Of a stretch of 64,000 nt of DNA, positions 46,589 to 48,083 are shown one piece after another. Position numbers and translations under genes: made by a program. The DNA comes from Escherichia coli. Its GTDB lineage: Bacteria; Pseudomonadota; Gammaproteobacteria; Enterobacterales; Enterobacteriaceae. The stretch lies in the NCBI RefSeq assembly GCF_965641715.1, contig NZ_OZ282453.1. One strand, written 5' to 3'. Under the pieces are notes generated by a model that searched no databases, was not told where the DNA came from, and saw nothing but the letters and a program-made list of their open reading frames with translations. The first letter of the stretch is position 1; the number at the start of each line of letters is the position of its first letter.

Positions 46589-46608
46589 TTATTTTGTTTC
46601 ATACTAAG

Positions 46609-46638
46609 AAAAGGCCCTAATAAATTAGGGCCTTTTCT
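46609..46638. terminator. Bidirectional rho-independent terminator between convergent ugd and gla
   Basis: aaaaggccctaataaattagggcctttt: perfect stem flanked by an A-run and a T-run. Confidence 0.7.
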
Positions 46639-46653
46639 TATGGTTTTATAAAA

Positions 46654-47658
46654 TCAAACTTTATAGAAGTTACGATACCATTCTACAAAGTTCTTTACCC
46701 CCTCTTTAACTGACGTTTCAGGTTTGAATCCTATTACGTCATACAGTGCTTTTGTATCAGCACTGGTTTCCAGTACATCACCGGGTTGGAGAGGCATCAT
46801 ATTTTTGTTGGCTTCAATACCCAGAGCCTCTTCTAAGGCATTGATATAGTCCATCAACTCCACAGGCGAACTATTACCAATGTTATAGACACGATATGGT
46901 GCTGAACTTGTTGCAGGAGAGCCTGTTTCAACAGCCCACTGTGGATCTTTTTCTGGAATAACATCCTGTAAGCGAATAATAGCTTCGGCAATATCATCAA
47001 TATAAGTAAAGTCACGCTTCATTTTGCCGAAGTTGTAAACATCAATGCTTTTACCTCCCAACATGGCTTTAGTGAATTTAAATAATGCCATATCCGGACG
47101 TCCCCATGGACCATAAACCGTAAAGAAACGCAGCCCTGTGGTCGGTAAGCCATACAAATGAGAATACGTATGGGCCATGAGTTCATTCGCTTTTTTAGTT
47201 GCTGCATAAAGCGAAACAGGATGATCTACAGAGTCATCTGTGGAGAAAGGCATCTTGCGGTTCATGCCATAAACAGAACTGGAGGAAGCGTAAAGTAGAT
47301 GCTGAACACTATTATGGCGACATCCTTCCAGTATGTTCAGGAATCCAATCAGGTTTGCATCTGCATATGCATTGGGATTTTCAAGGGAGTAACGTACACC
47401 GGCTTGCGCAGCGAGGTTTATTACGCGTTCGAACTGCTCGTCTGCAAACAGTGCCGCCATTTTCTCACGATCAGCCAGGTCAATTTTATAAAAACTGAAG
47501 TTGTCGTGCTTGAGTAAATCAAGTCGTGCTTGTTTGAGGTTGACATCGTAATAATCATTTAAGTTGTCAATGCCTACAACCTGATGACCAGCTGCAAGAA
47601 GCCGTTTACTTACATAGAAACCGATAAAGCCAGCAGCTCCCGTAACCAGAAATTTCAT
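46654..47658 (-). CDS. gla: UDP-glucuronate 4-epimerase (NAD-dependent SDR; Gla/WbnF/CapI-like)
   Basis: 334 aa; MKFLVTGAAGFIGFYVSKRLL...YASSSSVYG...YAATKK; closely resembles UDP-GlcA 4-epimerases from memory; minus strand, opposite to flanking ugd and wzz. Confidence 0.8.
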   Translation of the reverse strand: MKFLVTGAAGFIGFYVSKRLLAAGHQVVGIDNLNDYYDVNLKQARLDLLKHDNFSFYKIDLADREKMAALFADEQFERVINLAAQAGVRYSLENPNAYADANLIGFLNILEGCRHNSVQHLLYASSSSVYGMNRKMPFSTDDSVDHPVSLYAATKKANELMAHTYSHLYGLPTTGLRFFTVYGPWGRPDMALFKFTKAMLGGKSIDVYNFGKMKRDFTYIDDIAEAIIRLQDVIPEKDPQWAVETGSPATSSAPYRVYNIGNSSPVELMDYINALEEALGIEANKNMMPLQPGDVLETSADTKALYDVIGFKPETSVKEGVKNFVEWYRNFYKV

Positions 47659-47835
47659 TTATAATCCTCGCTCAGGCTAGAATATAGCCAATCTTCATCT
47701 GGCATAACTGAAAGTTAAATCATACCGTTAGACAAGAAAAAAAGATAATCGGTATCAGTTCTAAACCTGGCTGTTTTTTCTGGTAACGTGCTCATTTTAC
47801 GATCAAAGCTGTTCTAAGCTGACTATTAGACCACT

Positions 47836-47937
47836 TTCAAACAACAAGCCGATGTCATTATTTCCAACCGTATGGCAGAAGAGCTTAAGGATGTGGCAGA
47901 CAAAGTCTACACCCGCGATCTCTTTGGCAGTGACTAA
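47836..47937 (+). pseudogene. Orphan duplicate of the ugd 3-prime end (last about 33 codons, ending ...[23 protein letters not shown] stop)
   Basis: ttcaaacaacaagccgatgtcattatttccaaccgtatg... aligns with the 3-prime end of ugd (46490-46588) and retains the stop codon and a downstream hairpin cagggcgattttcgccctg. Confidence 0.75.
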
Positions 47938-48083
47938 CATCCTGTTATCAGGGCGATTTTCGCCCTGATTCTCTTATGTTCCATTTGTAATAATTCATTA
48001 TTTTTATCATTTATCCTATAGCATTCATGGCGATTATCGCTAAACTATGGCGACTTAAAATTATTTCGTCCGTTAGGGTAATG

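Follow-up and report, generated by a model that had tools for sequence, protein, structure and literature searches.

A Gla-type epimerase gene of Escherichia coli lies between ugd and wzzB in a ugd-gla block which very probably was swapped in as one piece, leaving the tail of the old ugd behind as a scar. The gnd-ugd spacer, ugd, the terminator and gla together with its 5' region form a single divergent block of about 2.65 kb, at about 45184-47830 of the window (the whole stretch of 64,000 nucleotides that was analysed). The gene is already known, and the recombination scar is of a known kind.

Anatomy of the ugd-wzzB interval

An SDR reading frame, ugd, an orphan ugd tail and wzzB had been listed in the first-pass annotation, and all of them were found where it had placed them. 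The interval is composed of the following features:

45174-45421, plus strand: intergenic spacer between gnd and ugd, divergent ('class C') type, forming the left part of the ugd-gla block (identity profile, BLASTN)
45422-46588, plus strand: ugd, UDP-glucose 6-dehydrogenase, class C allele, intact, 388 aa (NCBIfam NF011631)
46605-46640, both strands: terminator hairpin for both directions, located where ugd and gla converge (16-bp stem)
46654-47658, minus strand: gla (wbnF/uge-type), predicted UDP-glucuronate/UDP-galacturonate 4-epimerase, intact, 334 aa (Pfam, PDB, motifs)
47659-47830, minus strand: region 5' of gla with its ribosome-binding site and a presumed promoter, forming the right part of the imported block (homology to other genera)
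47810-47835, no strand: junction at which the ugd-gla block meets what is left of the common ugd (K-12 homology from 47831)
47836-47937, plus strand: orphan ugd 3' end, 33 codons and stop, left over from the common ('class A') ugd of E. coli
47938-48083, plus strand: terminator hairpin of the native ugd (47947-47969) and native spacer between ugd and wzzB with the wzz promoter region
48084-49064, plus strand: wzzB, O-antigen chain length determinant, flanking the feature on the right (NF012015)

In NCBIfam, ugd scores 798.3 bits against NF011631 (cut-off 757) and wzzB 599.8 bits against NF012015 (cut-off 267), with residues 1-326 on profile positions 1-325. Between the end of ugd and the stop codon of gla there are 65 nt, in which the hairpin at 46605-46640 separates the two convergent genes; it folds equally well on either strand (−24.8 and −24.3 kcal/mol; z −6.1 and −6.6). 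A terminator-like hairpin is also located within the gnd-ugd spacer (45200-45226). The sequence GAGGA is found 7 nt 5' of the gla ATG, and the gla 5' region (47659-47830) is alignable with other genera, the upstream homology reaching 47749 for Citrobacter sp. FP75 and 47755 for the O111:H8 locus. An Rfam scan of 45000-49300 for RNA genes yielded sub-threshold chance matches only, the hairpin at 46605-46640 reaching the threshold of no family. The label 'AT-rich' given earlier to the epimerase gene is a fair one, as its GC content is 42.4 % compared to 50.1 % in gnd; ugd has 43.0 %.

Identity of the 334-aa protein

Judged by its sequence, the minus-strand gene is the known gla of E. coli (also uge or glaKP in Klebsiella) and is predicted to encode a UDP-glucuronate 4-epimerase. 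The protein shows the extended SDR fold (PF01370, E 2e-56, residues 4-231) and an NAD-binding GxxGxxG motif (GAAGFIG, residues 7-13). Over all 334 residues it is 81 % identical to PDB 5u4q (E 6e-190), and residues 1-333 align with the UDP-GlcA 4-epimerase of Bacillus cereus (BcUGAepi, PDB 6zl6; E 1e-42). S126-S127-S128, Y151 and K155 correspond to T126-S127-S128, Y149 and K153 of BcUGAepi, for which the roles of the catalytic and carboxylate-binding residues have been described (PMC7984243). A Glu at position 128 marks UDP-GlcA decarboxylases (PMC7984243); here this carboxylate-site residue is Ser. The exact 334-aa protein was found on 124 contigs; a member of its cluster bears the name 'UDP-glucuronate 4-epimerase' in one source. 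The substrate would be supplied by the adjacent ugd.

In K. pneumoniae, glaKP/uge lies after ugd and is oriented against it, according to a source that cites a biochemical characterisation of GlaKP (PMC3101168). PDB 5u4q is 97 % identical to a Klebsiella-type epimerase adjoining ugd in an E. coli strain of the O9 family. Orthology of the window's protein to the characterised GlaKP appears well founded, via 5u4q and this locus. The depositors of 5u4q labelled it 'dTDP-glucose 4,6-dehydratase', and the link to GlaKP is therefore an indirect one.

That the protein is instead a Gne/GalE-type UDP-Glc/UDP-GlcNAc 4-epimerase or a dTDP-glucose 4,6-dehydratase is very improbable. Such an assignment would agree with the depositors' name, with the best NCBIfam matches by E-value (GalE and RmlB) and with strain LL004, in which the gene at the same position was assigned as gne (PMC8657804). 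However, the scores remain far below the curated cut-offs, with 145.4 bits against 262.3 for GalE (TIGR01179) and 145.2 against 365.1 for RmlB (TIGR01181), and the carboxylate-binding S-S-S motif is present. Furthermore, the window already has rmlB proper at 30116-31201, galE/gne genes of their own are present besides gla in the clusters of O113, O116 and GF47, and the Klebsiella orthologue at the same position is the characterised GlaKP (PMC3101168). A TviC/GnaB-type UDP-GlcNAcA 4-epimerase is likewise not indicated (119.4 bits, NF011728 cut-off 760). The earlier proposal of a Gla-type and not a GalE-type enzyme is upheld by the GalE score, the 5u4q match and the S-S-S site.

Probable replacement of the common ugd

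The first-pass annotation regarded only the 3' end of ugd as foreign and assumed a simple insertion of the epimerase together with this new end. Neither assumption is borne out, because both the complete resident ugd and the gnd-ugd spacer of 248 nt consist of divergent-type sequence. The spacer is 45-53 % identical to K-12, and along ugd the identity is 58-94 % in stretches of 100 nt (75 % overall; 327 of 389 aa, 84 %), the divergence extending along the whole length of the gene, and no K-12 match was obtained by BLASTN for 45184-45420. Spacer and ugd are 92-100 % identical to those of other gla-positive strains, with 95-100 % for the spacer in comparison to the O139 and O115 loci. Divergent from K-12 yet near-identical in gla-positive strains, they therefore point to the replacement of the old ugd by a complete ugd-gla block. 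The left boundary lies at about 45184, just past the gnd stop at the gnd terminator; gnd directly upstream is 96 % identical to K-12 and 84 % to Citrobacter. At the right boundary K-12 homology starts at 47831. In the comparison of the ugd-wzz interval across E. coli genomes, suggested along with the first-pass annotation, about 4360 genomes without gla begin to match the window only at 47831, in a stretch annotated there as ugd 3' end and wzzB.

The window-type gla block was found in 278 of 5426 complete genomes (about 5 %, or about 10 % if other gla lineages are counted), and ugd alleles with at least 90 % nucleotide identity to that of the window in 277 genomes. At least four of the six complete genomes with the O-unit cluster of the window have an intact gla. 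O111:H8 possesses a separate gla lineage at the same site, which is a pseudogene with an internal stop; in the established structure of the O111 unit there is no uronic acid.

The second ugd end at 47836-47937, with its own stop and hairpin and no ugd body upstream, had been described correctly. Aligned in frame and without gaps, it is identical to the resident tail (46487-46588) at 78 of 102 nt (E 5e-17 in BLASTN with the whole window). Elsewhere on the plus strand of the window the best ungapped match to the tail is 46/102 (mean 25.5, sd 4.6), which places the repeat about 11 sd over the window background. The two tails differ in 19 codons, 13 of them synonymously and 6 non-synonymously. The hairpin after the orphan (47947-47969) has a 10-bp stem (−16.9 kcal/mol, z −5.8). 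All 33 amino acids of the functional Ugd tails of K-12 and PM7 are encoded by the orphan, whose region matches K-12 with 87 % over 253 nt (BLASTN E 4e-87), and the relic is contiguous with wzzB in the same way as ugd in K-12 and PM7. Together with the matches of the gla-less genomes, the 33/33 agreement with the K-12 tail supports the view that the orphan is a remnant of the original, common E. coli ugd. In other strains RefSeq calls it an incomplete pseudogene, and no second ugd tail was detected in the Citrobacter, Enterobacter and Kluyvera loci compared. The resemblance of the stretch CTGGTAACGTG at 47778-47788 to the K-12 motif CTGGAACGTG was considered as a mark of a longer relic and rejected; the stretch aligns with the region upstream of gla in Citrobacter and O111:H8 and therefore belongs to the imported block.

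The junction is the same in each of the 13 gla-positive loci that were compared, either in full, with a 17-bp deletion (7/13) or with a divergent 40-nt patch (3/13). This one common junction points to a single origin of block and scar. As to direction and mechanism of the founding recombination, we infer that a ugd-gla block was joined to an ancestral E. coli chromosome with the common ugd-wzzB arrangement. The left join would have occurred at the end of gnd and the right join, an illegitimate one, about 34 codons ahead of the stop codon in the common ugd; with a right join inside this gene, its tail, the terminator and the wzz promoter region would therefore have survived as the scar. Homologous recombination would then have carried block and scar from one E. 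coli lineage to another, along with O-antigen clusters requiring galacturonate (GalA). In a scan of species-representative genomes for a donor, no Gla exceeded 87 % aa identity, the best having 83-87 % aa and at most 80 % nt identity. Because no donor was found among these genomes, and because gla of the best of them has 48-54 % GC compared to 42.4 % here, the block may be a long-standing polymorphism of E. coli and not an import that could be dated.

Two other histories of the interval have to be weighed. If gla had arrived with a foreign ugd 3' end only, as proposed in the earlier version, the resident ugd would be chimeric, with its 5' part native and its 3' part foreign. Such a chimera would fit the difference between the two tails and the fact that the resident tail is less K-12-like than the orphan, but it is refuted by the identity profile of ugd and spacer, divergent over the full length and near-identical to gla-positive strains, and can practically be dismissed. 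Moreover, real chimeras exist with the opposite polarity, namely a mosaic ugd with a class C 5' and a class A 3' part and without gla, in 681 genomes. For these mosaic (class B) alleles an origin by deletion between the two tails was rejected, since the switch from class C to class A lies near 45745-45845 and not in the tail. In the other history ugd-gla-wzz is the older state, and a gla-less fragment (ugd tail, wzzB, his) was joined illegitimately after gla. The junction itself is compatible with either side as the incomer, and both polarities give the same present-day structure. The reverse polarity is in line with the wide distribution of ugd-gla-wzz synteny in Enterobacteriaceae, with the 90-92 % aa identity of class C Ugd to other genera compared to 84 % between K-12 Ugd and class C, and with the like low GC content of both ugd classes (43.0 and 43.8 %). 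However, gnd at the left is of the E. coli type with an abrupt change in the spacer, and the block is therefore flanked by E. coli-type DNA on both sides, the pattern expected of an insert; in addition, gla occurs in only 5 % of the genomes, all with one junction. The reverse polarity is accordingly considered unlikely, and replacement of the old ugd by the ugd-gla block is preferred.

A related question is whether the orphan tail was left over by this replacement or has been kept for a function, as an upstream control of wzzB, as an insulator between the divergent gla and wzzB or as a micro-ORF. The relics of all 13 loci encode the same 29 residues, their 9 polymorphic sites are all synonymous third positions (22 % would be expected of random changes), and the native terminator hairpin is retained, which would suit a function. 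Variation inherited from functional ugd genes or imported from them does, however, account for this synonymous-only pattern, because the relic haplotypes are those of functional ugd tails such as PM7. Moreover, the longest in-frame ATG reading frame has 21 codons and no start codon in frame is preceded by a ribosome-binding site, the 17 bp at the 5' end of the relic are gone in 7 of the 13 loci, and the relic is absent from other gla lineages (O111:H8, Citrobacter, Enterobacter). A retained function is highly unlikely, and the tail is best regarded as the scar of the replacement. A use as recombination anchor is possible, if rather doubtful: the relic of about 100 nt would offer homology for exchange between gla-positive and gla-less chromosomes, in keeping with its purely synonymous variation and with haplotypes shared with functional ugd tails. 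O-antigen cassettes with and without gla could then replace one another, which would help to explain the 681 genomes with mosaic ugd.

Galacturonate, O-antigen types and known systems

The proposed pathway starts with the ugd product, which would convert UDP-glucose into UDP-GlcA. Gla would invert C4 of the latter by oxidising it with NAD+, letting the 4-keto intermediate rotate and reducing it again, and the resulting UDP-GalA would be used by transferases of the adjacent Wzx/Wzy O-unit cluster. The gla-positive loci carry wzx/wzy of O139, O115, O155, O113, O158, O54, O159 and O116. GalA is a constituent of the O-antigens of O54, O113, O115, O116, O139 and O159. One gla-positive strain is labelled O158, a type not counted among these GalA-containing serogroups, and its cluster is riddled with IS elements. 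The presence of ATP-grasp amidoligase genes in the O54 and NCTC122 clusters would fit amidated uronic acids. The O-unit of strain LL004 contains GalA, and between ugd and wzz this strain has the same 334-aa gene on the complement strand (PMC8657804). By association with LL004 and the other gla-positive serogroups, GalA may be part of the polysaccharide of the present strain, too.

For the O-type of the window, the statement of the first-pass annotation that no transferase can be tied to GalA still holds. A GT4 at 38593-39699, 45-46 % identical to GT4s of two other gla-positive clusters, is one lead. No wzx/wzy model match for the O-type of the window was found in NCBIfam, and the six matching genomes are annotated generically in RefSeq. 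The cluster to which the wzx of the window belongs includes a member named from Shigella dysenteriae, from which the type was not identified.

The main review of E. coli O-antigen genetics places genes for UDP-GalA at conserved loci elsewhere on the chromosome (PMC7685785), and in a paper of 2021 on a GalA-containing O-antigen the ugd-wzz gene was named gne and gla was placed elsewhere (PMC8657804). The data presented here describe gla as an accessory gene at the ugd-wzzB junction which moves with particular O-unit clusters. The practical value is one of annotation: if gla is counted in the O-antigen locus, sugars can be better predicted from sequence, and an intact gla would become a marker of GalA-containing O or K antigens. 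The scar is a clean textbook case of how a block is replaced at the margin of the O-antigen recombination hotspot.

Within E. coli, gla and wbnF of O113 are one gene with two names. According to Paton and Paton in 1999, wbnF is reportedly transcribed separately, downstream of the cluster, needed for O113 synthesis and not serogroup-specific. To our knowledge, the relic and the block structure have not been discussed for O113 wbnF. In the O113 genome RM10466, gla is found in the same place with 98.1 % nucleotide identity and the same relic.

Outside E. coli, the arrangement gnd-ugd-gla (reverse)-wzzB-hisI is shared by Enterobacter cloacae, E. asburiae, Citrobacter sp. FP75 and C. werkmanii. The Kluyvera locus follows this order as well, but no match to WzzB was detected in it. 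These genera resemble the window in gene order and orientations, with 83-87 % aa identity for Gla and 90-92 % for Ugd; they differ, like the Citrobacter-like region of O111:H8 with its gla pseudogene, in the absence of an orphan tail and in nucleotide identities of 73-80 %.

Among characterised enzymes, BcUGAepi (PDB 6zl6/6zla) and MoeE5 share with Gla the T/S126-S127-S128 motif gripping the carboxylate and the Tyr-x3-Lys base, so that their mechanistic model should apply (PMC7984243). They are distant relatives, however, and the catalytic Thr there is Ser here and in the Klebsiella protein. Gne and GalE share the SDR superfamily and the chemistry of C4-epimerisation, and the gene at the gla position has been called gne (PMC8657804). 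In contrast to them, Gla scores below the GalE cut-off and differs in residues of the sugar C6 pocket, and clusters with their own galE/gne still carry gla.

The closest system is GlaKP/Uge of Klebsiella pneumoniae, with 81 % aa identity over 334 residues, the same SDR motifs and a gene directly downstream of and convergent with ugd (PMC3101168). Klebsiella also shares the gnd-ugd-gla-wzz-hisI order, without the relic. The Klebsiella gla is regarded as a core-LPS synthesis gene and is present in the sequenced strains (PMC3101168), whereas the E. coli gene is accessory (278/5426). Unlike its Klebsiella counterpart, which has 54.5 % GC compared to 42 %, the E. coli gla travels with particular O-antigen clusters and bears the ugd-tail scar.

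The his-linked polysaccharide region and its second ugd tail

According to gene calls and profile matches, the window covers the his-linked polysaccharide region of E. coli.

Gene order of the polysaccharide region in the window
First in order, before galF: colanic acid genes
28839-29744: galF
30116-33592: rmlBDAC
Between rmlBDAC and manC: O-unit cluster of the Wzx/Wzy type, with four glycosyltransferases and one acetyltransferase
After the O-unit cluster, before gnd: manC and manB
43767-45173: gnd
45422-46588: ugd
46654-47658, minus strand: gene of a short-chain dehydrogenase/reductase (SDR), here gla
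48084-49064: wzzB
Beyond wzzB, minus strand: his operon

The first-pass annotation had described a minus-strand SDR gene between ugd and wzzB, followed by an orphan ugd tail with its own stop codon and hairpin, and both are present. The orphan (47836-47937) repeats the final 33 ugd codons plus the stop codon, in frame and without gaps. In a BLASTN search of the whole window it aligned with the resident tail at 46487-46588 over 78 of 102 identical nucleotides (E 5e-17); the runner-up 102-nt match on the plus strand of the window has 46/102, about 11 standard deviations below. A hairpin with a 10-bp stem lies 3' of the orphan (47947-47969), and another with a 16-bp stem, folding on both strands, is common to the convergent ugd and SDR genes. 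No Rfam family reached threshold in 45000-49300. The relic is already annotated by RefSeq as an incomplete pseudogene.

The mechanically called wzzB reading frame opens at 48027. From the ATG at 48084 the protein aligns with the WzzB family profile over its full length, and homologues in RefSeq comprise 325-326 aa. The 19 codons upstream of this ATG are probably not translated. The manB of the O-cluster (42231-43565, 53.9 % GC) adjoins a manC of 34.6 % GC, with a sharp change in composition at about 42200. With the colanic acid gene cpsG (20101-21435), 22 kb upstream, this manB shares 95.8 % identity across 1335 nt, and the two form a long direct repeat.

Probable replacement of the common ugd by a ugd-gla block

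The first-pass annotation had proposed that the resident ugd acquired a foreign 3' end together with the epimerase gene, with the orphan as remnant of the original tail. The observation was confirmed, and its interpretation is right in part. Identity to K-12 is 96 % in gnd as far as 45183. The gnd-ugd spacer of 248 nt can hardly be aligned at all (45-53 %), and ugd is divergent throughout (58-94 % in 100-nt steps, 75 % for the whole gene, 327/389 aa). Gla-positive O139 and O115 strains, in contrast, match the window at 92-100 % over this span, and a history with a foreign 3' end only is therefore wrong. Homology to K-12 restarts only at 47831 (87-90 %). The gla 5' region is homologous to Citrobacter sp. 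FP75 as far as 47749 and to an O111:H8 locus as far as 47755. Because K-12 identity breaks off at 45183 and returns only at 47831, the unit is, by sequence comparison, a block of about 2.65 kb (about 45184-47830) comprising the spacer, the whole ugd, the shared terminator, gla and the gla 5' region. This block probably displaced the common ugd, sparing its last ~34 codons, and the orphan is the remainder.

The second half of the proposal holds. The orphan encodes 33 of 33 residues of the Ugd tails of K-12 and PM7, and the usual ugd terminator and the spacer before wzzB follow it without interruption. When 46400-48200 was used as query, about 4360 complete genomes lacking gla gave a match that begins only at query position 1432 (window 47831), and the matched stretch is annotated there as ugd and wzzB. 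Among 13 relic copies nine sites vary (47848-47937 in the window), and all nine are synonymous third positions, against 22 % expected for random changes. The relic has no usable start, is 5'-truncated in 7/13 copies, and its haplotypes equal those of functional ugd tails, e.g. of PM7. Most likely the variation arose in functional genes and came to the relic by descent or recombination, rather than through selection on the relic itself.

Of 5426 complete E. coli genomes, 278 carry window-type gla (95-99 % nucleotide identity); ugd alleles at least 90 % identical to that of the window occur in 277, and the full interval 46400-48200 including the relic likewise in 277. As all 13 aligned gla-positive loci have this junction in common, they are most simply explained by a single founding event. 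Variants around it are the full form of the window, a 17-bp deletion at the relic 5' end (7/13) and a divergent 40-nt patch just upstream (3/13). This patch (47790-47830; compared with L087, YSP8-1 and L099) is only about half identical between two groups of gla-positive strains, with flanks of at least 95 %.

The junction itself shows what looks like an illegitimate join of a ugd-gla block to a ugd-tail-wzzB segment. Since the left flank is E. coli-type gnd, the ugd-gla block was likely the incomer. When a single genome was scanned for each species, Gla relatives of 64-87 % identity were found across Proteobacteria. The same succession of gnd, ugd, reversed gla, wzzB and hisI exists in Enterobacter cloacae, E. 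asburiae, Citrobacter sp. FP75 and C. werkmanii, and also in Kluyvera, where a WzzB match was not detected. The Ugd proteins of these Enterobacter, Citrobacter and Kluyvera loci are 90-92 % identical to that of the window, and none of the loci has a second ugd tail. At the nucleotide level the block reaches only 73-80 % identity to these loci, whose gla has 48-54 % GC compared to 42.4 % in the window. No donor was found among the one-per-species genomes, and E. coli may have carried the block for a long time.

Later exchanges are recorded in the same region. A mosaic ugd without gla is present in 681 complete genomes (e.g. L003 3749-4915 and L004 3748-4914), corresponding to the divergent, gla-linked allele from the spacer to about 45745 (first ~330 nt of the gene, 96-100 % to the window) and, beginning at about 45845, to the K-12 type for the rest of the gene. 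The crossover lies near 45745-45845, and the mosaics show ugd itself to be a frequent crossover site. Strain YSP8-1 differs from the window at only two positions between gnd and about 46767. Beyond this point gla differs by 2.4 %, and relic, spacer and wzzB by 13-17 %, so that a recombination breakpoint lies inside gla at ~46767. As the O-unit cluster is 99.9 % identical in both, it must have passed from one gla-positive background to another by a crossover within gla. Downstream of wzzB a manC gene is located in YSP8-1, the O155-type VCSW7 and GF47, all of one junction variant. For VCSW7 and GF47, an O8-type wzm/wzt cluster follows on from this manC, and for this reason the Wzx/Wzy polymer of these two may be a K antigen.

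Identity of the SDR protein

The SDR protein belongs to the Pfam NAD-dependent epimerase/dehydratase family and passes no NCBIfam model, scoring far below the curated cut-offs for GalE (145 vs 262 bits), RmlB (145 vs 365) and TviC (119 vs 760). By far the best solved structure is PDB 5u4q (E 6e-190, 81 % identity over all 334 residues), followed by 6zl6 and related entries for the UDP-glucuronic acid 4-epimerase of Bacillus cereus (1e-42). The depositors named 5u4q 'dTDP-glucose 4,6-dehydratase'; yet an O9-family strain of E. coli has, in a Klebsiella-like region, an epimerase adjoining ugd with which 5u4q shares 97 % identity, so that 5u4q is a Gla-type protein under a dehydratase label. For Klebsiella pneumoniae an opposite-direction glaKP (uge) following ugd is described as a characterised UDP-galacturonic acid C4-epimerase (PMC3101168). 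The carboxylate of the substrate is gripped in BcUGAepi by T126, S127 and S128, with Y149 as catalytic base together with K153 (PMC7984243). Alignment gives S126-S127-S128, Y151 and K155 as equivalents, and position 128 is Ser and not Glu as in decarboxylases. The identical protein was found on 124 public contigs, and one source labels a member of its cluster 'UDP-glucuronate 4-epimerase'. Owing to the 5u4q/Klebsiella match, the conserved BcUGAepi residues, the sub-cut-off scores and the cluster name, the protein was filed as Gla with inferred activity, in agreement with the first-pass assignment as UDP-glucuronate 4-epimerase and not GalE.

Galacturonic acid and comparison with known loci

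The wzx/wzy genes at gla-positive loci are of types O139, O115 (twice), O155, O113, O158, O54, O159 and O116 as well as unnamed types. The O-antigens O54, O113, O115, O116, O139 and O159 contain galacturonic acid (GalA). Genes for ATP-grasp amidoligases are present in the clusters of O54 and NCTC122, and intact gla is kept in at least four of six complete genomes with the O-unit cluster of the window. The polysaccharide of the window strain probably contains GalA. The GT4 glycosyltransferase at 38593-39699 is a candidate GalA transferase, or transferase for a conserved first linkage; two further gla-positive clusters (L090, L092) each have, just before gnd, a GT4 that is 45-46 % identical to it. 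In strain LL004, whose O-unit includes GalA, a complement-strand gene for a 334-aa 'NAD-dependent epimerase' is located between ugd and wzz; it was named gne, with the statement that gla 'always maps elsewhere' (PMC8657804).

A more sensitive search retrieved gla homologues in 523 genomes; beyond the 278, 248 records show 60-80 % identity. Among these lineages are the Klebsiella-like regions of O9-family strains and an intact copy in O100:H21. The O111:H8 locus (L093 4776-8387) has a Citrobacter-like gnd-ugd-gla-wzzB region without relic, and its gla carries an internal stop (HLAA*AGVRY). The O111 O-antigen contains neither GalA nor any other uronic acid, which fits the dead gene. In one O9-family locus (L095 5835-8343) gla lies directly downstream of ugd on the same strand and is followed by a second ugd-tail fragment of 22 residues. 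Tail duplication beside gla therefore happened more than once, here independently and next to a different gla lineage.

No new biological system is represented by this arrangement, and the gain is for annotation practice, which it helps to correct. The scar is of a kind that arises routinely when blocks are replaced at the O-antigen hotspot. Gene and position are already known as glaKP/uge in Klebsiella and as wbnF in E. coli O113.
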